Of a stretch of 62,445 bases of DNA, positions 3,621 through 51,992 are shown in pieces. The stretch comes from Candidatus Nomurabacteria bacterium. Lineage in GTDB: Bacteria; Patescibacteriota; Minisyncoccia; Phycocordibacterales; UBA9973. The stretch lies in the NCBI GenBank assembly GCA_031425235.1, contig JANPIZ010000003.1:1-62445 (forward strand). The letters are read 5' to 3'. Both the position numbers and the translations under genes were made by a program. Every line of letters starts with the position of its first letter. Position 1 is the stretch's first letter. Under the pieces are notes generated by a model. The model searched no databases. It saw nothing but the letters and a program-made list of their open reading frames with translations, and was not told the origin of the DNA.

Positions 3621-3893
3621 TTAAGGTGCTGTAGGTATATTCTCTGGGACTGGAGTTGGATCGGTTACTGGGTTAGGATTTGAACCAGTATTATTGTTGT
3701 TTTCTGGTAATTTTACATCTACGTTTATATTACCTCGATCTGATGCTCCAGAGTTACGAATCATTGGAAGTCCGTACACAAAGAAAAGCACTATGATCAG
3801 TAACGCAATGATAGTACCCATGATAAGACCTGCGCCGCCCGAATCTTCTTGAGTTCCGCCGCCGCCCTTATAGTTGTTTATTACATCTGCCAT
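3621..3893 (-). CDS. Hypothetical single-pass membrane protein
   Basis: 90 aa: G-rich N-terminus, one hydrophobic helix, N/P-rich tail. Confidence 0.5.
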   Translation of the reverse strand: MADVINNYKGGGGTQEDSGGAGLIMGTIIALLIIVLFFVYGLPMIRNSGASDRGNINVDVKLPENNNNTGSNPNPVTDPTPVPENIPTAP

Positions 3894-19802: not shown

Positions 19803-19831
19803 TTGCCAAAATTCACTACCGGGTATATACT
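19803..19831 (+). promoter_or_regulatory. Sigma-70-type promoter for the riboswitch transcript
   Basis: TTGCCA, 17-nt spacer, TATACT. Confidence 0.5.
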
Positions 19832-19852
19832 ATATTAGTTCATTGGAAAATT

Positions 19853-19960
19853 TAGAGAATTGATTGGGGAAACTGGTTAGATTCCAGTACAGTGCCGCTA
19901 CGGTAAGTCCCGATACGCTCACAAGCATATCGAGGAACAAGTCCGAATACCAATCATTTG
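19853..19960 (+). promoter_or_regulatory. Cobalamin (B12) riboswitch aptamer
   Basis: GGGGAAACTGGTTAGATTCCAGTACAGTGCCGCTACGGTAAG core plus a B12-box-like AAGTCCGAATACC. The P1 stem pairs tgattgg with ccaatca. Confidence 0.8.
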
Positions 19961-20017
19961 ATGTGTTTATTTAGTCCCGAGCAGGATAGGTTCTCATTTT
20001 TTTGAGGCCCTTATAAA

Positions 20018-20042
20018 TTCTGCCCGAGCAGAATTTTTTTTG
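20018..20042 (+). terminator. Riboswitch expression-platform terminator
   Basis: ttctgc-ccga-gcagaa followed by a run of 9 T. Confidence 0.7.
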
Positions 20043-20059
20043 TGCCTAATTTATATATC

Positions 20060-20560
20060 ATGCCTAAAAGAGAAAAAATCAAACTTATATCAGCTATAGT
20101 CATAATTTTCCTAATATTATTGGGCGGGTATTTTTCATACTCATATAAATTAACTGAAGAAAAATCACCTCCAAAAAATCTAATTGAAGAATCAGGAACT
20201 ACTGCAGATAAAAGCTATAATCAAGAAAAGACACTAGAGACACCAAAGCCGCAGACTAAAGCACAAACTGACCAAGCAACCTTAGAAATAAACGGCGCAC
20301 CATTCACAGCCCAGATCGAAAAAAATATGAGCGTGTATGATTTTATGATAAAAGTAAAAGATCAAAAAAAAATAACTTTTACAGAGAAAACATATATCGG
20401 CCTTGGAAAATTCATTGATGAAATAAATGGGTTACGGGGTGATGGATCCAGGTTTTGGATTTATTATGTAAATGGACAAAAAGCAAAAATAGGTGTTTCA
20501 AATTATAAGATTAATCCAGGAGATGTCGTATCTTGGAAATATGAAAAAGATATAGATTAA
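20060..20560 (+). CDS. DUF4430 domain protein (transcobalamin beta-domain-like), membrane anchored
   Basis: GLGKFIDEINGLRGDGSRFWIYYVNGQKAKIGVSNYKINPGDVVSWKY. ATG at 20060 preferred over the GTG at 20042, which lies inside the terminator T-run. Confidence 0.75.
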   Translation: MPKREKIKLISAIVIIFLILLGGYFSYSYKLTEEKSPPKNLIEESGTTADKSYNQEKTLETPKPQTKAQTDQATLEINGAPFTAQIEKNMSVYDFMIKVKDQKKITFTEKTYIGLGKFIDEINGLRGDGSRFWIYYVNGQKAKIGVSNYKINPGDVVSWKYEKDID

Positions 20561-20579
20561 AAATTAACTAATTAAAAAT

Positions 20580-22421
20580 ATGCAACATATCAAAAAATTT
20601 ATTACAAATATAACCGGAACTTCTTTAATGCTAGTAATGCTCTTTGGAGCAAGCCATTTAGCTCGAGCGGAAGAACCAGAAAATCCTGAACCAGAGCCAA
20701 CAATAGTAGGGTTAACAGTACGAAGTGGTGAAACTATCATCTTTAACGATGAAGTTGCCTTGCAGGCTGCAGGAACTATCGATATCGATGGACATGATGT
20801 TGACGCCCATAGCGTGCTTTCTCTGCTACGTGACGCTGACACGAGCGATGATAGCTGGGACATAACAGATTTGCAATATTTTGATTCATTTGGTGCATTT
20901 TATTTAAAATGCCTAGAAAGCTCTGTCGGTGAAAATTGCGACAACTGGCAATACGCAGTCGATGGTTCATACTCTTTTTCGAGTATTGATCAATATATCT
21001 TACATGGTGGAGAAAATGTATATATTTACTTTGGACCACAAAATAAAATCACCTTGAGTTCAAATTCTATCACTACAAATGGTAGTGTCACCTTGACTAC
21101 CCAAAATTACGACTATAAAAACAATGATTGGGTAGTTCGTAGTGGGGTAACTGCGGGAGTAACCCAACCAGACCCAAATGACCCATTTACTCCTATAGAA
21201 ATAACAACAACTGAAGTGGACGGAAACGGACAAGCAGTATTTAGCAACCTAGCTACTGGATCTTACAATCTTGGAATTAAAGAAGATTTTTATTTTCCTA
21301 CCGAACCACTTACAGTAACTACAGCCTCAAATGGTGGTGGGGGTGGAAGTAGGACCACAACCACAAAAGACGCAAAAGTTCTTGGGGCCACAACAAAAGC
21401 CGAGTTTAACTTAGAAAAAGCTTTCGATTTCCTTATTTCACAACAAAAAGAGAATGGTTCATTTGGGGAAGAAATTTACACTGACTGGGCAGGCATAGCT
21501 TTAGCAACAGGCGCTCGCCAAGAACAAACTATAAAATTGGTTAAATACCTAGTAACTACAAAAACTGCAGGTACCCTTCTCACTGATTATGAGAGACACG
21601 CCATGACTCTCCTTTCTCTCGGACTCAATCCTTATAACACAAACGGTGAAAACTATATTGGAAAAATAGTAGCCAGGTTCGATGGAAAACAATTTGGAGA
21701 TGCAAACGAAGATAATGATGACATCTTTGCACTCATAGTATTACAAAATGCAGGATACAAAACAAATGAAAAAATACTTACCGACAGTGTTGAATTTGTT
21801 CTAGGAAGGCAAAAAGAAAATGGTTCCTGGGATGAAAGTGTGGACATGACTGGCGCAGGAATGGCGGCGCTGTCCCCTTTTAATCAAAATGAAAAAGTAA
21901 GCGTTGCGATAGGAAAAGCAAAAGAATTCTTGAAGCAAAGCCAGAAAGAAACTGGTGGCTGGGCTAATGTATCGGCTACCGCCTGGGCTATCCAAGGCAT
22001 ATTAGCACTCAAAGAAAATCCAGTTGATTGGAAAAAAGGTGACAATACACCATTTGATTATTTCGCTACAAATCAAGATACTGACGGAGGAATAAAAAAT
22101 GAGAACCTGCAAAGTAAACTTTGGGAAACCGCATACACCATAACAGCTTACTCAGGAAAAACATGGAACGAACTCATGCAAACATACGAAAAACCACAAA
22201 ATGCTTCGGTGCTCGGAGCGTCGACAGAAGTTAAAACACAAACCACTATTGTTCCAGTTAAAAAAATAGCGATAAAACCCAAAATAGCTATTGCGAAAGA
22301 TATAAATCTCGACGCACCAGTAGCCCCTATCCCAATGGAAACTCCCGAAGCTCCAGCCGTAGCGCCTCAAGAACAAAGTTGGATCAAGAAATTATTTAGG
22401 AGCATCTGGAGTGCTTTATAG
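20580..22421 (+). CDS. Secreted protein with prenyltransferase/terpene-cyclase-like alpha/alpha-toroid repeats
   Basis: Signal peptide plus repeated Q-x-x-x-G-(S/G)-(F/W) units (SQQKENGSFG, GRQKENGSWDE, QKETGGWA, NQDTDGGI). Confidence 0.6.
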   Translation: MQHIKKFITNITGTSLMLVMLFGASHLARAEEPENPEPEPTIVGLTVRSGETIIFNDEVALQAAGTIDIDGHDVDAHSVLSLLRDADTSDDSWDITDLQYFDSFGAFYLKCLESSVGENCDNWQYAVDGSYSFSSIDQYILHGGENVYIYFGPQNKITLSSNSITTNGSVTLTTQNYDYKNNDWVVRSGVTAGVTQPDPNDPFTPIEITTTEVDGNGQAVFSNLATGSYNLGIKEDFYFPTEPLTVTTASNGGGGGSRTTTTKDAKVLGATTKAEFNLEKAFDFLISQQKENGSFGEEIYTDWAGIALATGARQEQTIKLVKYLVTTKTAGTLLTDYERHAMTLLSLGLNPYNTNGENYIGKIVARFDGKQFGDANEDNDDIFALIVLQNAGYKTNEKILTDSVEFVLGRQKENGSWDESVDMTGAGMAALSPFNQNEKVSVAIGKAKEFLKQSQKETGGWANVSATAWAIQGILALKENPVDWKKGDNTPFDYFATNQDTDGGIKNENLQSKLWETAYTITAYSGKTWNELMQTYEKPQNASVLGASTEVKTQTTIVPVKKIAIKPKIAIAKDINLDAPVAPIPMETPEAPAVAPQEQSWIKKLFRSIWSAL

Positions 22422-36552: not shown

Positions 36553-36625
36553 GTCTGAATTATATCACGATGGAAATTCTTTGCTAAGCTATGGACCTCG
36601 TGCGCCCGGGCCGCATACGCTCCTC

Positions 36626-36733
36626 GGGCTAGTCCGAGCTGGCTGAATGACTCAGTCTAGAACCTTACCCTGTGAGACCCCACAAGCGTTCTTTGACGAC
36701 TTTTAATATACCAAATTGAGGTGTCTCAGTCAT
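36626..36733. repeat. GC-rich ~108-bp repeat, copy A, carrying a 22-codon ORF on the minus strand at 36665-36733
   Basis: About 93% identical to 38747-38854. The ORF reads MTETPQFGILKVVKERLWGLTG*. Confidence 0.85.
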
Positions 36734-36849
36734 GCTGTCTATAAGCAAGAACCGTTCTTGCTTAAGGTTATATAGTGCTGTGAGTATAGCATTTATTGAT
36801 AAATTATGTGTGATAGATAAAAAATCTTGCTGGTCATTTGATCTAGAAA

Positions 36850-38119: not shown

Positions 38120-38142
38120 TCAGTCACCTGACTTAGCATATG
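38120..38142. repeat. 23-bp exact direct repeat, left copy (candidate att site)
   Basis: tcagtcacctgacttagcatatg is identical to 51895-51917. It contains the imperfect palindrome TCAGTCA-CC-TGACTTA. Confidence 0.85.
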
Positions 38143-38356
38143 GCTGCTGGCGTCCTTGAGCAAGAACCGTCATCAGGATTGCCCTATAAGGCTTTCGTAG
38201 CTAGTTTTATAATAGCATTTCGACGGTACTTGAGCACTATAAAATGAGATAGTGCATTACTGAATTTTTCTAATCTTCGATCTGAGAAATAATTCTTGAT
38301 AAACACCTCCCATGTTGGAGAATTTAAATGATCAAGTTGTATAACCTTCCAAGTTG

Positions 38357-38680: not shown

Positions 38681-38746
38681 ATTGTTTTACTCTTAACGTT
38701 TTTGAATAATTATTTAGATGTTTTTTCTTCGAACTAGCTATCTTTG

Positions 38747-38854
38747 AGCTAGCCCGAGGTGGCTGACTGACTCAGTCTAGAACCTTACCCTGTGAGACCC
38801 CACAAGCGTTCTTTGACGACTTTCAGTATACCAAATTGAGGCGTCTCAGTCATA
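38747..38854. repeat. GC-rich ~108-bp repeat, copy B, with the same 22-codon ORF at 38785-38853 (minus)
   Basis: See copy A. All 3 nucleotide differences inside the ORF are synonymous. Confidence 0.85.
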
Positions 38855-38911
38855 CTCATTCCAACCCCCACAAGCCTTATTTCACGTCAAAATGAGACAA
38901 ATAAGACAGGT

Positions 38912-40186
38912 TTAGGGCTTTTCAGGTGGTGTCTCATTCTTGGGGACATCAACCCATTTAAGCTGATCCATGATCTTGTAATCTTTCACCTTTTCTCTAG
39001 CTCCAGCAAACCTATACCAAGGAAAGATGGAACGATTTTCTTTACCGTCTATTATTTCCACACCCTGTTGTGATTCGGTAAGTTTCTTAGGAGGCAAGAT
39101 ATCTTTGTTGTCTTCAAGCATAAAAATCTGACAATGTTCACCCTTACCGTAACGAGTAATAATTCTGGGTTTAATAATCCCTTTTCTTACCCACTTGTAA
39201 AAAGTAGGACCCTTAATATTAAATCTGCTTTCAATATCATATTTTGAATACCAGCTATCTTCGTCTTTTGCGACAGATGCAGGTATTTCTCCTTCATCAA
39301 TAGCTTTCTGGCAGACCAGACATTTGATGCCCCATTCGTCATACCAATTATCGCCTTCGGGAGTACCGTCGCCACATATAGCACAGCGATAACCCGCACC
39401 TTCAAGATGGAATCCTTTCGGATTTGCTTTTAGTTTTTCTGCACGAGCTTTATCCTTTTCTTTCATCTCGTCTACAAATTTTCCAAGTTGTTCCAATCTC
39501 CATTTTTCTTCCTGCCATTTTTTACCAGCTTCTTCTGTCAGACAAAAACGATCTCTATCTTCTGCAAATTTTTCATCAAACTCTTCCTCGTGTGCGGAAG
39601 TTTTTTCTATCTCACTCTTTTTAACATATCCGCATTCTGAATTTGTGCAGATATATTCTGTAATAAATTTTTCTTTAGTACTTGCATCCTTGCAATCAAG
39701 TTTTCCTTTGCAATTCGGACAAGGGTTCGGTTTCGATCTCCATTCTTCACCGTCTGAGAAAAATGCTCTTCTTGGTAGGCACTGATTAGGACAATCGTAC
39801 ATAAAAAACATTCTGTCTTCTTTTCCTTCTTCGGACCATAGATTTTTGAATGTTGGTTTTAGAAGATTGCGACAGGTTAGACAGCGTATATTTTCTGGTG
39901 CTTGTACTGTTTCATACAATTCGTCTTTTCTTTGGTCAGCATCCATCCATTTTTGGATTGTTTCCTCTTTATTTAAATATCTTTCGCCTGTTTGAAACAT
40001 CATACTCCAATCAAGAGCCATTTTTGACATAGCGTCAAGCATTTTCTGTGTTGGTTTTTTACCCTCAATCAATGGAGGATTTTTGATTGGCTCTGAATGA
40101 AGGCGTTCTAGGTCTCGGCATCGTTCAACGGTATGGCGGTCGTAGAGATCGATGTAATGTTGCTTGTCTTTAAGATGCTTTTCCAT
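38912..40186 (-). CDS. Hypothetical multi-zinc-ribbon protein with a C-terminal excisionase-like HTH
   Basis: CxxC pairs: CLTCRN, CPNQC, CPNCKGKLDC, CTNSECG, CAICGDG...CLVCQ. C-terminal FYKWVRKGIIKP. Confidence 0.5.
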   Translation of the reverse strand: MEKHLKDKQHYIDLYDRHTVERCRDLERLHSEPIKNPPLIEGKKPTQKMLDAMSKMALDWSMMFQTGERYLNKEETIQKWMDADQRKDELYETVQAPENIRCLTCRNLLKPTFKNLWSEEGKEDRMFFMYDCPNQCLPRRAFFSDGEEWRSKPNPCPNCKGKLDCKDASTKEKFITEYICTNSECGYVKKSEIEKTSAHEEEFDEKFAEDRDRFCLTEEAGKKWQEEKWRLEQLGKFVDEMKEKDKARAEKLKANPKGFHLEGAGYRCAICGDGTPEGDNWYDEWGIKCLVCQKAIDEGEIPASVAKDEDSWYSKYDIESRFNIKGPTFYKWVRKGIIKPRIITRYGKGEHCQIFMLEDNKDILPPKKLTESQQGVEIIDGKENRSIFPWYRFAGAREKVKDYKIMDQLKWVDVPKNETPPEKP

Positions 40187-40230
40187 AGGTTAATTATAGA
40201 AAATTTATTAAAGTTTTCCACCCCTCCACA

Positions 40231-40258
40231 TTGCACGCATATTGACGTTTGATATAAT
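40231..40258 (+). promoter_or_regulatory. Strong sigma-70 promoter with an extended -10
   Basis: TTGCAC, 16-nt spacer, TGaTATAAT. Confidence 0.55.
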
Positions 40259-40595
40259 GCGATTAGTTCTTTGAAGTTTTGTTGTTAACCTTTTGCGAAG
40301 GGACCCTTTATCATTAAAGAAGTCTGATTGTATTTGGTCCAACGAATGCTAATAAATCCTTGTTTTTGAAAGTAATGACTTAATACCGCCCTCAGAAGCG
40401 GGATGCCCTATAGTTCGGGCTTAAAACTGAATTAAAAGATCACCTACCCATTCAGGTATACGAATGTCACGCCCTATAGTTCTGGCAGATGAATTATCTA
40501 AAACCTAACCAAGGAGATTAGTGTGGAGTTGGTAAATCGGTAGTCGCTTTTTGCGTCTAGCTATTTGCCAATTCTACATTAGGTAACTAGAAAAG

Positions 40596-40616
40596 GCGGC
40601 TACCAAGCCGTTTTTT
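40596..40616 (+). terminator. Short intrinsic terminator/attenuator 36 nt upstream of the methyltransferase ATG
   Basis: cggct-acca-agccg followed by tttttt. An alternative 9-bp pairing is possible with ggtagtcgc at 40539-40547. Confidence 0.5.
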
Positions 40617-40651
40617 GTTTGCGCCTATTACTAGTTTAACTAAATAAAGTT

Positions 40652-41977
40652 ATGTCAGAAAAAATACAAATTGTGCATGTATCTGTTAGTGAGTTGCGAG
40701 CTTCTGAATATAATCCTCGTAAGTGGGATAAAGAAGCAGAGAGTCAGTTGAAAGAAAGTATTAAAAGGTTTGGGATAGTCGATCCGTTGCTTGTGAACTC
40801 AGCGGAAGAAAGAAAAAATATTGTTATCGGTGGGCATTTCAGATTGTCGGTGATAAAAGAGTTAGATATAGAAGAAGTTCCCGTTGTATATATTAACATT
40901 CCCGACATTGAAAAAGAAAAAGAGTTGAACATCAGACTTAATAAAAACACTGGAGAATTTGATTGGGACATCCTCAAAACATTCGACGAAACATTCTTGT
41001 CAGATATTGGTTTTACTTCCGAGGATATCGATAGCATCTTTGAAGAAGATAAAGTCGAGGAGCAATTCGATCTAAACAAAGAGCTAGCGAAATTAAACAT
41101 CGAAAAGATCACTGTCGAAAAGGGCGATGTGTATGATTTAGATGGTTCACGAATTATGTGTGGCGATAGTACAGTAGAAGCAGATATGTTGAAGCTATGC
41201 GGTGAACATAAAATAGACATGGTCATGACTGACCCGCCTTATATTTTGGACTATCTCCATGGAAAAAGTCGCCAAGGCAAAGCGACTGAGGGATTTGGTG
41301 CGAAGAAAAATCGTCGCTACCTTGAAACAGATATCTTGCCTGATAATTTTACAGAATTATGGATGGCAAATGTCCATAAAGTACAAGCCGATAACTTTTC
41401 CATTATTTGCTACGAGAACTGGAAGAACATCAGAATTATCTGGAACGAGATGGATAAATATTGGAAAGTGAAGAATATGCTCGTGTGGCATTTAGCCAAT
41501 CGAAACCAAGGATATGCGGGTAAGCATAAATTCTTTTCCAAATATGATATCGCCATGGTAGCAACCAGTAACCCACATGACGGTTTAAAGACTGAGCCAG
41601 AAGAAGAACTACTTGAGAATGAATACAACACCGCTTTGTTTGCTATCTCTGGTTCTCCGCAATGGGAAAGCTATGGCAAAGGCAAGAAGTACTGTCCCAC
41701 TGACCACATAGAGCATTTAGCGGCTGACGAAAAATCCTCAGGTCAAGCAATTATCTTCGGTACTAAACCACTTGAAATATTGATCCCATATATCAAAGTT
41801 CTAACTACTAGGGATCAACTCGTTCTTGAGCCATTTGGTGGGTCAGGTTCAACCTTGATTGCATCCATAAAGCTAAAACGTCGATGCTTTATTATGGAAA
41901 AATCTCCTGTTTATACAGAAGTTATTCTTAATCGTTGGGAGAAATTTACTGGTAAGAAAAGAGTTAAGTTATCTTAA
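40652..41977 (+). CDS. ParB-like nuclease domain fused to an N6/N4 DNA methyltransferase
   Basis: N-terminal ...YNPRKWDKEAESQLKESIKRFGIVDPLLVN...GGHFR (ParB/Srx fold), then MTDPPY and EPFGGSGSTLIA motifs. Confidence 0.85.
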   Translation: MSEKIQIVHVSVSELRASEYNPRKWDKEAESQLKESIKRFGIVDPLLVNSAEERKNIVIGGHFRLSVIKELDIEEVPVVYINIPDIEKEKELNIRLNKNTGEFDWDILKTFDETFLSDIGFTSEDIDSIFEEDKVEEQFDLNKELAKLNIEKITVEKGDVYDLDGSRIMCGDSTVEADMLKLCGEHKIDMVMTDPPYILDYLHGKSRQGKATEGFGAKKNRRYLETDILPDNFTELWMANVHKVQADNFSIICYENWKNIRIIWNEMDKYWKVKNMLVWHLANRNQGYAGKHKFFSKYDIAMVATSNPHDGLKTEPEEELLENEYNTALFAISGSPQWESYGKGKKYCPTDHIEHLAADEKSSGQAIIFGTKPLEILIPYIKVLTTRDQLVLEPFGGSGSTLIASIKLKRRCFIMEKSPVYTEVILNRWEKFTGKKRVKLS

Positions 41978-42523
41978 ATGAAGCATAATTATGAAAAATC
42001 AAAATTTCTTGAGGCTCTTCGTGAGTCTCCAGTTGTCGCGCGCGCCGCCAAAAAGGCAGGTATTTCCAAAGCCACCATTTACCGATGGATGAAGGATGTA
42101 CCTGACTTTAGGCGTGCAGTTAATTCGGCAATAAGAGAAGGCAATGCACATACTGGCGAAATGGTAGAGATGGTATTGGTAAAGAGAGCAATGGAGGGAA
42201 ATTTCAACGCAATGAAATTTTACTTAATTAACAACAATCCTAAATATGCCCCTAAGCGTACGATTGACCCCACTCCAATCTTCGTGCATAAACATGATGA
42301 TGAGTCAGAACCTTGCCAACTTTGTATTCGTGTAGAAGTTGAGCAACGATTTAAGAATAAAGTAATGCTACGAGAAATAAATCAAGAGATTGAAAGATTA
42401 GCAAATCCAAAAACAGAAGCGGATAGAAAGGAAGCCAAAGAATTTATGGACAAGGTTCTGGAAATGAGTAAAGAACAACGAAGGAGAGAGCAAGTAGATA
42501 AAGGGCTTGAAAGTATTATTTGA
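41978..42523 (+). CDS. HTH DNA-binding protein (phage terminase-small-subunit-like / homeodomain-like)
   Basis: VARAAKKAGISKATIYRWMKDVPDFRRAV. Its start abuts the methyltransferase stop. Confidence 0.55.
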   Translation: MKHNYEKSKFLEALRESPVVARAAKKAGISKATIYRWMKDVPDFRRAVNSAIREGNAHTGEMVEMVLVKRAMEGNFNAMKFYLINNNPKYAPKRTIDPTPIFVHKHDDESEPCQLCIRVEVEQRFKNKVMLREINQEIERLANPKTEADRKEAKEFMDKVLEMSKEQRRREQVDKGLESII

Positions 42524-43049: not shown

Positions 43050-43145
43050 AGATTGTAGCGAGTTTTTAAAGTCTCAGTCAGATAGACAAAGAGCCCTCCG
43101 CCCGAGCGATGATCCGAAGACCATCCATACCAGTTTCCCGATATG

Positions 43146-43192
43146 ACTCGCTACAAGTACCCTGACGAAGGGTTCTTTATCTTGTAGCGAGT
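43146..43192. other. 12-bp stem hairpin; the arm sequence recurs at 43053-43066
   Basis: actcgctacaag ... cttgtagcgagt. ttgtagcgagtttt is also found directly upstream of the 42516-43049 start. Confidence 0.6.
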
Positions 43193-43334
43193 TTTATGAC
43201 CATATCCTTAGAGATTCTAAAGGGGTTAGGTCTCAACTTATTAATTTGTAATGAGATTATACCTCCTTTTTAGAGGCTTTGCCATACTACCTTAGATCAT
43301 GTGGGTTGTGTAGTCGAGTTACCAACAGGCGGTA

Positions 43335-50373: not shown

Positions 50374-50503
50374 AGGTCTGCATACTAACTCACCTTGTAA
50401 AATAAGGGTAATTAGTTATCAACAAATGCATCCTAGACTCCTAAGAGCCGTTGCGTCATTCCTTAGGTGTAGGTCAATTATCAACCAAACACAAGGAATA
50501 TAT

Positions 50504-51799
50504 ATGAAACATAAGCAAGTAGAGCAAGCCCCCACGGCACCCCTTAAATACTGTCTGTATTCTAGGAAATCCACAGAGGCTGAGGATAAGCAGGCTCTCT
50601 CAATAGAATCTCAGGTAAAGGAGATGCAAGCTCTAGCAGAGCGAGACCATCTCCATATAGTAGAGATAAAGCGAGAGGCACACTCGTCGAAAGAAGTTGG
50701 GCAAAGACCTGTATACAATGAAATGCTAGCAGAGATCAAACAAGGCAAGTTCAACGCCATCCTTACTTGGGCACCTGACAGATTAAGTAGAAATGCAGGA
50801 GACTTAGGGTCAGTGGTGGATTTGATGGATCAGGGAAAGTTAATTGAGATAAAAACATATGGGCAGAAATTTACAAACAATCCAAACGAGAAGTTCCTCC
50901 TGATGATTCTAGGATCACAAGCGAAACTGGAGAATGATAATAAGGCAGTGAATGTACAGCGAGGTCTACGAACAAGGTGCGAGATGGGATGGAGACCAGG
51001 AGTTGCACCGACTGGCTACCTGAATGAAAAGCATGTAGATAAAAAGTGCCAATGCAGGATTGATCCAAAACGAGCACCAGTTATTAAGCAGATGTTTGAG
51101 AAAGTCGCATCTGAACAATGGAGTGGAAGAAAAGTATATCGATGGCTAAGAGAAATTAATTTCAAAACGCATAGAGGAAAGCCATTAGTGTTAGCAAATA
51201 TTTATATCATCTTAAGAAATCCATTTTATTATGGTGACTTTGAATATCCAAAAGGTGGCGGTCAATGGTATACAGGAAAGCAGACACCGATTATAGATAA
51301 AACACTTTACGATAGAGTGCAGATGACTCTTAATCAGAATTATATTCCCAAAACTGAGAGTAAAGAATTCGCATTTACTAAACTCATACACTGTGGCTAC
51401 TGCGGATCAGGCATATCGGCTGATGAGAAATTTAAGAAACTTAAAGATGGTGGAGTGAATCGCCATGTCTACTATTTCTGTACGAAAGCAAGGAACATAG
51501 ACTGCAAAAATCCAGCTATCAATGAGCCAAACTTAATAACAGAACTTATTGAATTGATGGATAAGGTAGACTTAGATGAGCTTGGAATTAAAACAAGAAT
51601 CGAGGATGAGATAAGTAGGTTTAATAAATTTAGAACTGGAGTATTAGGGCATAAGCAAGAAAAAGTATCACTGGATATAGATGTCCGAAACTACACGAAG
51701 TACTTACTCAAAGATGGAACACTAATGGAGAAAAGAGAACTACTATCTTGTATGAAAAGTAAACTAATTATAAAAGAAAAGAAAGTCTGTTTCGCATAA
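50504..51799 (+). CDS. Large serine recombinase
   Basis: YCLYSRKSTEAEDKQALSIESQ (catalytic Ser region), DRLSRN, a recombinase domain and a CGYCGSG...YYFC zinc ribbon. ATG at 50504 preferred over 50426. Confidence 0.85.
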   Translation: MKHKQVEQAPTAPLKYCLYSRKSTEAEDKQALSIESQVKEMQALAERDHLHIVEIKREAHSSKEVGQRPVYNEMLAEIKQGKFNAILTWAPDRLSRNAGDLGSVVDLMDQGKLIEIKTYGQKFTNNPNEKFLLMILGSQAKLENDNKAVNVQRGLRTRCEMGWRPGVAPTGYLNEKHVDKKCQCRIDPKRAPVIKQMFEKVASEQWSGRKVYRWLREINFKTHRGKPLVLANIYIILRNPFYYGDFEYPKGGGQWYTGKQTPIIDKTLYDRVQMTLNQNYIPKTESKEFAFTKLIHCGYCGSGISADEKFKKLKDGGVNRHVYYFCTKARNIDCKNPAINEPNLITELIELMDKVDLDELGIKTRIEDEISRFNKFRTGVLGHKQEKVSLDIDVRNYTKYLLKDGTLMEKRELLSCMKSKLIIKEKKVCFA

Positions 51800-51894: not shown

Positions 51895-51917
51895 TCAGTC
51901 ACCTGACTTAGCATATG
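51895..51917. repeat. 23-bp exact direct repeat, right copy (candidate att site), 4 nt from the tRNA-Gln 3' end
   Basis: Identical to 38120-38142. Flanking similarity extends to about 38110-38150 and 51885-51927, with indels. Confidence 0.85.
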
Positions 51918-51921
51918 ACGG

Positions 51922-51992
51922 CTGGGAGACTAGGACTCGAACCTAGATAACGTCCTCCAGAGGGACGTGTCCTACCATTAGACGATCTCCCA
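51922..51992 (-). tRNA. tRNA-Gln (anticodon CUG)
   Basis: Folds by hand into a cloverleaf: acceptor tgggaga/tctccca, anticodon stem cgtcc/ggacg with loop ctCTGga, T arm ctagg-ttcgagt-cctag. No encoded CCA. Confidence 0.9.

Follow-up and report, generated by a model that had tools for sequence, protein, structure and literature searches.

A 62,445-nt stretch of DNA from Candidatus Nomurabacteria bacterium (contig JANPIZ010000003.1), hereafter the window, contains a gene-free gap of 465 bp at positions 40187–40651. The gap is flanked by divergent genes encoding a 424-aa protein (38912–40186, minus strand) and a DNA methyltransferase with ParB_N and N6_N4 domains (40652–41977, plus strand). What does this gap encode, and does it govern the expression of the genes on its right? 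Comparison with related loci demonstrates that it encodes a real structured RNA of ~350 nt with a terminator and a conserved alternative pairing. We give about an even chance to the interpretation of this RNA as a factor-controlled transcription attenuator that leads the rightward operon of an integrative island.

A structured RNA with two competing 3′ folds

The gap was singled out in a preliminary description, and each of the sequence features listed there is indeed present. As claimed, it contains no open reading frame (ORF) of at least 60 aa. The only ORFs of at least 20 aa touch its left edge (40133–40252 on the plus strand and 40208–40342 on the minus strand), and none occurs in any frame within 40343–40651. 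A small protein-coding gene was considered as another explanation of the region; no ORF is conserved among the homologues of the RNA.

Nine copies of the RNA were identified, in the window and in the loci L203, L001, L290, L202, L058, L206, L207 and L308. Sequence search of upstream regions yielded only the closest relatives; the others were found by DNA patterns, in fetched contigs and with a covariance model of the 3′ module. All nine copies combine a sigma-70-type promoter, a long hairpin and a terminator. Related copies are also present in many DNA runs, where the similarity spans about 40265–40616 and the differences fit the proposed base pairs (e.g. A to T at 40536 together with T to A at 40564).

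The promoter-to-terminator RNA, originally estimated at ~370 nt, is supported at about 352 nt (40265–40616, plus strand) by its fold z-score, the limits of the match between homologues and a metatranscriptome contig. The predicted fold of the plus strand has an energy of −104.7 kcal/mol and z = −4.6 relative to shuffled sequences, compared with z = −1.4 for the minus strand. The putative promoter (40231–40258) consists of a −35 box TTGCAC (40231–36), a 16-nt spacer and an extended −10 box TGaTATAAT (40250–58). Its description as near-consensus holds for the −10 box, which is perfect, but not for the −35 box, which matches the consensus at only three of six positions; because of this weak box the promoter is absent from the list produced by a consensus scan. 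It is located 6 nt ahead of AGTTCTTTGA, a distance that recurs in the homologues, and each of the nine copies has a promoter at the equivalent position. The probable 5′ end of the RNA, AGUUCUUUGA (40265–40274), placed 6 nt past the −10 box on sequence grounds, is shared by seven of the nine copies and stands at the identical distance in five of them (the window, L203, L001, L290 and L202); L207 and L308 begin with AGUACA. The same motif was also found in the locus L033.

The only transcript sequence comes from a soil metatranscriptome, X4, in the form of one 238-nt contig that shows three differences from the window over the matching segment, 40373–40502. Beyond this segment it runs on at both ends into diverged leader sequence and so corresponds to about 40290–40527 in all; it is the only contig on the 7.5 kb between 36500 and 44000. 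Since its depth is low and the organism only a relative, we regard it as supportive and not decisive.

The 3′ module of the RNA contains two hairpins and a strand that could switch between them. The long hairpin (40519–40581) has a 19-bp outer stem (40519–40537/40563–40581) that closes an apical stem-loop (40539–40561), and its sequence in all nine copies follows the pattern GUGUGGARUUGGUAA...UUGCCAAUUCUAC. Seven of the stem pairs are invariant, and the sequence is conserved beyond the needs of pairing; among unpaired or short-stem elements, conservation is highest in the apical CGC-UUUUU-GCG stem-loop. The intrinsic terminator (40596–40616), located 36 nt upstream of the methyltransferase ATG as previously described, is formed by the stem CGGCU/AGCCG (40597–40601/40606–40610), the loop ACCA and a U6 tract (40611–40616). 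The first tool used listed a terminator hairpin on the minus strand only; a separate scan of our own lists it on the plus strand. The putative antiterminator 5′ strand GGUAGUCGC (40539–40547) could pair either within the apical stem-loop or with GCGGCUACC (40596–40604), the antiterminator 3′ strand, which overlaps the 5′ arm of the terminator. The latter pairing comprises 9 bp, one of them G-U, at −18.0 kcal/mol, in close balance with the apical hairpin (−9.0 kcal/mol) and the terminator (−12.6 kcal/mol) of the window.

The mutually exclusive terminator and antiterminator, proposed initially from the window, are real, conserved and covarying, and all three helices show compensatory changes in homologous loci. 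We counted pairs in a model-fitted alignment of the nine sequences; a MAFFT alignment of seven gave the same picture. The long hairpin is paired in 95.3% of cells, with five pairs changed on both sides, and the terminator in 97.8%, with two compensatory pairs (CGGCU/AGCCG is replaced by CAGCU/AGCUG in L202). The antiterminator helix is paired in 81.5% of cells and has three pairs changed on both sides; its pair 28–118 is GC in four sequences, AU in three and UA in one. No shuffle reached the score of this helix, and slid controls fall to 29–48% paired. The alternative pairing comprises 7–11 bp across the homologues and is present in eight of the nine, including an 11 of 12 match in L308. When no alignment was used, the best partner of the terminator 5′ arm within the ~300-nt upstream RNA was the same apical spot in seven of eight homologues, the energies of this pairing ranging from −12 to −22 kcal/mol. 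The covariation counts are modest, since the homologues are few and partly related.

Distribution and variable parts of the RNA

The RNA had been linked to the ParB-methyltransferase, and this link does not hold in general. Six of the nine copies precede the methyltransferase gene. In the loci L206, L207 and L308, which have no methyltransferase, the RNA precedes other genes, followed by a large serine recombinase gene on the same strand: genes for a 369-aa protein and an Xis-like helix-turn-helix (HTH) protein in L206, a DUF5681 protein similar to the terminase small subunit (TerS) in L207, and 389-aa and 177-aa proteins in L308. In L207 and L308 the module lies directly ahead of the serine-recombinase operon. 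L207 adjoins a tmRNA gene, and L206 adjoins a tRNA gene. Conversely, two loci with close relatives of the methyltransferase, L289 (87% identity) and L291 (79%), have no copy of the RNA. From the recombinase-only members and the methyltransferase relatives lacking the RNA we conclude that it belongs to the head of the island operon and not to the methyltransferase as such. In L206, a 19-bp perfect inverted repeat (AATTCCCCTAAGTTTAGAG ... CTCTAAACTTAGGGGAATT) is found directly after the leader terminator and before the next start codon (3745–3870).

No known family was recognized in the preliminary description, and the Rfam scan agrees: Rfam 15 has no match in 40187–40651 at the gathering threshold, and the best sub-threshold matches at the permissive threshold (E ≤ 10) are eukaryotic miRNA models with at most 23 bits and include no riboswitch family. 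The covariance model of the 3′ module detected no further members in 80 other methyltransferase loci and seven viral loci, nor among chance DNA-pattern hits from non-CPR genomes (CPR, candidate phyla radiation or Patescibacteria). An initial DNA pattern scan was not stringent enough and produced about 120 chance hits; the pattern scan of metagenomes returned only the L001 contig, and the viral scans returned nothing. The RNA is a new and so far rare family (nine copies) of a known kind, specific to CPR islands.

The layout may extend further than the family. Many other methyltransferase loci, such as L033 (3670–4000), L006 (3721–4000) and L012 (3772–4000), have gene-free upstream regions of 380–520 nt that are unrelated in sequence but contain a promoter, in some cases followed by an identical AGUUCUUU start, and a terminator-like hairpin ahead of the methyltransferase gene. 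A terminator-like hairpin within 150 nt upstream of the methyltransferase is present in 27% of 85 loci, compared with 2.5% of random windows, and a leader followed by a terminator may be general in the island family.

In contrast to the 3′ module, with a mean identity of 0.66, the upstream 158–285 nt vary in length, cannot be aligned beyond close relatives and have an identity of 0.51 between homologues, compared with a shuffled baseline of 0.49. The two direct repeats and the small GC hairpin reported for the window belong to this part; they are present, and prove to be lineage-specific and not features of the RNA family. The repeats (40405–40444 and 40471–40510) agree at 70% of their 40 positions, including all of the first 12, and no further copies of this ~40-nt repeat exist within the window. 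Each copy opens with a small hairpin, which in copy 1 is GCCC-UAUAGUUC-GGGC. Only the window and its closest relative L203 have the two copies; other close relatives retain the second copy, whose hairpin (40471–40486) has the form ACCUUAUAGUUCGGGU in L290 and ACCUUAUCAUUCAGGU in L202, with a covarying stem (ACCU/AGGU). The GC hairpin CCGC-CCUCAGAA-GCGG (40386–40402) is likewise common to the window and L203 only. Another small hairpin, CUUUA-UCAU-UAAAG (40306–40319), was read from few sequences; it appears as CUUUA-UCUU-UAAAG in L202 and as UUUUA-UCAC-UAAAA in L290, where a C-G pair is replaced by U-A. A 14-codon ORF on the plus strand (40457–40501, MSRPIVLADELSKT) overlaps repeat copy 2; five of the homologues lack it.

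Proposed transcription attenuation and the alternatives

The locus combines a promoter on the strand of the operon, a terminator with no later promoter and a conserved helix that excludes the terminator, as an attenuator leader does. The consensus scan found no promoter-like site in 40315–40651, including the segment from the terminator to the methyltransferase ATG, and expression of the methyltransferase and of the TerS-like protein encoded next to it should therefore depend on read-through. An internal methyltransferase promoter that would use the conserved TTGCCA of the long hairpin was rejected, as the homologues have no consistent −10 box. The layout had been described as that of either an attenuator or a stand-alone non-coding RNA (ncRNA). 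With no methyltransferase promoter after the terminator an attenuator is the natural interpretation, although the two are not separable on the present data.

We propose the following mechanism. Transcription would start ~7 nt after the extended −10 box, from a promoter back to back with that of the 424-aa gene, and the RNA would end at the terminator 36 nt before the methyltransferase start codon, leaving downstream expression to read-through. The strands would emerge in the order X (40539–47), its apical partner X′, the closing strand of the long stem, and the terminator arms T5 and T3, creating a three-way competition. If X:X′ forms first in the apical stem-loop, the terminator T5:T3 would be free to form and termination would be favored. 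The alternative helix X:T5 (9 bp, −18 kcal/mol) would be a pseudoknot between the loop and the downstream region that acts as an antiterminator and blocks termination. Little energy separates X:T5 from the apical hairpin and the terminator taken together, and binding or melting of the apical CGC-UUUUU-GCG stem-loop by a factor would therefore tip the balance; an island or host protein is the most likely candidate. The terminated leader would accumulate as a stable RNA. Both the regulated read-through and the protein that acts at the apical stem-loop to set the outcome are inferred.

Several points weigh against this proposal. No protein co-occurs strictly with the RNA, and the methyltransferase loci L289 and L291 do without it. 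A hidden methyltransferase promoter is possible, since promoter rules for Patescibacteria are not established. Evidence at the RNA level comes from one contig of low depth (2.3x) in a relative, for which DNA carry-over is possible, and the transcript start and end points are predictions from sequence. One homologue, L202, lacks the alternative pairing, and mismatches are frequent at the middle position of the antiterminator helix. The comparison covers nine homologues, some of them close kin, and its shuffle control is not a probability.

The strongest alternative, to which we assign a minor though real probability, is a stand-alone, constitutively terminated RNA that acts in trans within the island, for instance in immunity, in regulation or by sequestering a protein, with X:T5 as a tertiary pseudoknot. 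The promoter of its own, the efficient-looking terminator and the fact that this RNA is the only assembled part of the 7.5 kb in the metatranscriptome would fit such a role, as would the variety of genes downstream (methyltransferase, 369-aa protein, DUF5681 protein and 389-aa protein) and the seven invariant stem pairs, typical of a protein-binding RNA. However, the RNA always points into the next gene, the terminator being mostly 36–50 nt from the start codon with no promoter between them. In addition, X:T5 competes with the terminator stem, so that both are impossible in one mature RNA. We found no conserved complementarity to a target. The sole candidate was a pairing of 7 + 7 bp between the leader (40296–40312) and the LOOT RNA, a structured RNA of the same islands; it does not surpass pairing with shuffled LOOT sequences, and L001, L202 and L207 do not retain it.

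Known systems provide parallels to an attenuator and to a regulatory leader of a mobile element. The bgl/sac RAT leaders controlled by LicT/SacY and the leaders controlled by PyrR and TRAP are protein-dependent terminator/antiterminator systems. They share with our locus the order of promoter, leader, intrinsic terminator and first gene, and a conserved short stem-loop one strand of which overlaps an alternative pairing with the terminator 5′ arm. In contrast to these systems, to which it has no sequence or Rfam similarity, the leader described here is much longer (~350 nt) with a variable 5′ part, and the competing strand is located in the apex of a 19-bp hairpin, so that the antiterminator would be a pseudoknot. 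In the prgQ leader with the IRS1 attenuator of the conjugative plasmid pCF10 and in the CI-RNA immunity leader of the satellite phage P4, an antisense or processed small RNA pairs with the leader. The likeness here is a mobile-element leader of a few hundred nucleotides with a factor-independent terminator before the main operon, along with a regulator gene next door and a terminated leader that is an abundant RNA, general features of those systems. Unlike them, our locus has no sequence relationship to either, no small-RNA partner was found for it, and its promoters are back to back and not convergent.

A metabolite riboswitch is improbable. The preliminary description had called the layout riboswitch-like, and the downstream methyltransferase suggests S-adenosylmethionine or S-adenosylhomocysteine as a ligand; the long structured leader upstream of an enzyme gene does have mutually exclusive terminator and antiterminator folds at its 3′ end, as riboswitches with terminator platforms do. 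But the conservation pattern is the reverse of the expected one, with a conserved platform (0.66) and a would-be aptamer region of variable length at random-level identity (0.51 vs 0.49), which argues against a classical riboswitch. Moreover, no riboswitch family matched even at E ≤ 10, the downstream genes have mobile-element functions, and three homologues head recombinase operons without a methyltransferase.

Equally doubtful is a DNA-level function, in which the 59-bp near-palindrome of the long hairpin would serve the recombinase as an attachment (att) site, the TerS-like protein as a packaging (pac) site, or the ParB domain as an operator or parS-like site. The arms GAATTGG...CCAATTC are very strongly conserved, and the island encodes all three candidate partners, a serine recombinase, a ParB-fold protein and a TerS-like protein. 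At the same time, all wobble positions of the stem are G-U on the plus strand (A-C on the other strand) and switch among G-U, A-U and G-C, and the spacing between the arms ranges from 25 to 37 nt, unfit for the fixed geometry of an att site or operator. The element always lies between the promoter and the terminator and covaries with the terminator arm, whereas the probable island ends lie elsewhere (38120–50 and 51895–925). In particular, it is not an imperfect inverted repeat of ~40–50 bp with fixed geometry at a boundary, as is expected of a large-serine-recombinase att site.

Leader-peptide attenuation, in which translation of the 14-codon ORF, ending 18 nt before the long hairpin, would set the fold, is very improbable: an ORF of the same place and length is kept in four of eight copies (the window, L203, L290 and L202) but absent from L001, L058, L206 and L207, its substitutions fall at all codon positions and follow the RNA hairpin in a pattern that is not coding-like, and the sequence has no consistent Shine-Dalgarno motif ahead of it. 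A second candidate peptide, M-W-S-W at the start of the long hairpin, is not conserved and has a stop at codon 2 in L290.

Three other kinds of system were rejected. Type III toxin–antitoxin (ToxI) loci contain tandem repeats of ~34–36 nt, a terminator and an endoribonuclease toxin gene; here only two repeat copies are present, 66 nt apart and 70% alike, and the downstream gene is the ParB-methyltransferase. In ANTAR-type antiterminators two hairpins each have a hexanucleotide loop, and the second one overlaps the terminator, whereas the repeated hairpins of the window have 8-nt loops and are located 85–190 nt upstream of the terminator. TIGR arrays are composed of 36-nt units with dual short repeats beside a Tas protein with a Nop domain (PMC12045711). 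The window has no such periodic array, and the neighboring 424-aa protein has no Nop domain or other recognizable fold.

Patescibacteria cannot be cultured by themselves, and knowledge of their gene regulation and mobile elements is very limited. The locus offers a concrete candidate cis-regulatory RNA with a defined switch helix before a gene pair that ranks among the most widespread in CPR bacteria: the pair of ParB-methyltransferase and TerS-like genes has over 5000 close relatives. At 110 nt, the 3′ module is of a size that suits in vitro termination assays with a standard RNA polymerase, and a response of the switch to an island or phage protein, if there is one, would provide a handle on island induction. 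We speculate, well short of conviction, that the hairpin–terminator module could be a master switch of widespread Patescibacteria integrative defence islands, in which a factor encoded by the island or the host, or else a signal from an incoming phage or helper, binds the apical stem-loop and so releases the methyltransferase/TerS or recombinase operon. RNA folding would then be coupled to island induction, excision or packaging and, taken together with the LOOT RNA, these would be RNA-regulated islands without a described counterpart among bacteria.

The island and its other elements

The mobile setting of the gap was not recognized in the preliminary description. The locus is a mobile defence island with a large serine recombinase (50426–51799, plus strand) beside tRNA-Gln (51920–51992, minus strand), a restriction-modification (R-M) system and Shedu, and from this context the gap is the control region of such an island. 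A 31-nt direct repeat (94% identical) occurs at 38120–38150 and at 51895–51925, the right copy abutting the 3′ end of tRNA-Gln past the recombinase gene; these repeats are probably the ends of an island of ~13.7 kb. It contains genes for 107-aa and 424-aa proteins, the leader, the methyltransferase, a TerS-like HTH protein encoded by the second gene of the operon (41978–42523, plus strand), the LOOT RNA, YgjP, type I R-M, Shedu and the recombinase. Between the TerS-like and recombinase genes, a gene for a 177-aa protein, LOOT, YgjP, type I R-M and Shedu are encoded on the opposite strand.

Relatives of the methyltransferase are found almost exclusively in metagenome-assembled genomes (MAGs) of Patescibacteria (5176 proteins at E ≤ 1e-100), with identities of 64–92% in hundreds of these MAGs. 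The TerS-like gene follows the methyltransferase gene in 73 of 80 loci; in 22 of the 80, for which a 4-kb flank was fetched, a homologue of the recombinase (45–70% identical) is located downstream of the pair on the same strand. A preprint (bioRxiv 10.1101/2025.10.10.680097) reports an enrichment of ParB-CTPase/N6N4-methyltransferase fusions in prophage regions. This gene pair and the orphan LOOT RNA can now be placed in a family of islands beside tRNA or tmRNA genes, driven by a large serine recombinase, that shuttle defence systems. In the cargo position occupied in the window by type I R-M and Shedu, L207 (2891–6696) and L291 (8551–12206) have Gabija-like pairs of an OLD-family ATPase and a UvrD helicase; the islands swap defence systems.

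The LOOT RNA (RF03000) is found in the window (43108–43232, minus strand) and in ten of 18 related loci, including L202 (5565–5689), L001 (6580–6712), L204 (5916–6036), L205 (5402–5527), L291 (8325–8453) and L207 (2688–2808). It is always followed, after 55–95 nt, by a variable gene convergent with the methyltransferase–TerS pair; in L207, LOOT and the leader RNA share a strand and LOOT comes immediately before the leader. The LOOT RNA thereby gains a genomic context, the serine-recombinase islands of CPR bacteria. Although LOOT and the leader are both structured RNAs of the same island family, LOOT has a length of 121 nt and no similarity to the leader, which fails the LOOT model, and it precedes a variable gene on the opposite strand.

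The 424-aa protein encoded to the left of the gap has several zinc-ribbon motifs of the CxxC type, along with a stretch weakly similar to HTH_17. Its 336 relatives are all hypothetical proteins from CPR genomes; the gene is adjacent and divergent to the methyltransferase gene in about 20 of 80 loci and also occurs elsewhere, without the methyltransferase. The protein was rejected as a recognizable regulator: Pfam, PADLOC, PHROG and NCBIfam gave no hits apart from the sub-threshold HTH_17, and its confident AlphaFold (AF2) model (predicted local distance difference test, pLDDT, 83) has no fold match in PDB. The promoter scan assigned to this gene a promoter on the minus strand at 40193–40220 (TGGAAA, 16 nt, TATAAT; 10 of 12 consensus positions), whose arrangement GTGGAAAAC...TATAAT recurs in L290 and L202, and which stands back to back with the rightward promoter of the leader. 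Since 6 nt separate the end of its −10 box from the ATG at 40186, this gene probably has a leaderless mRNA.

An intergenic 116-nt direct repeat (91% identical) occurs at 36621–36736 and 38741–38856. It is 93–95% conserved in L001 (1227–1321) and is also found in L031 (2687–2783) and L072 (2721–2791); it has no Rfam match and no detectable structure (z = −1.8 and 0.0 for the two copies). Short junction pieces shared between 36737–55 and 38152–70 suggest tandem or nested insertions at the tRNA-Gln site. Elsewhere in the window, a cobalamin riboswitch match just above threshold (37 bits) was found at 19818–19972 on the plus strand, upstream of 20042–22421.

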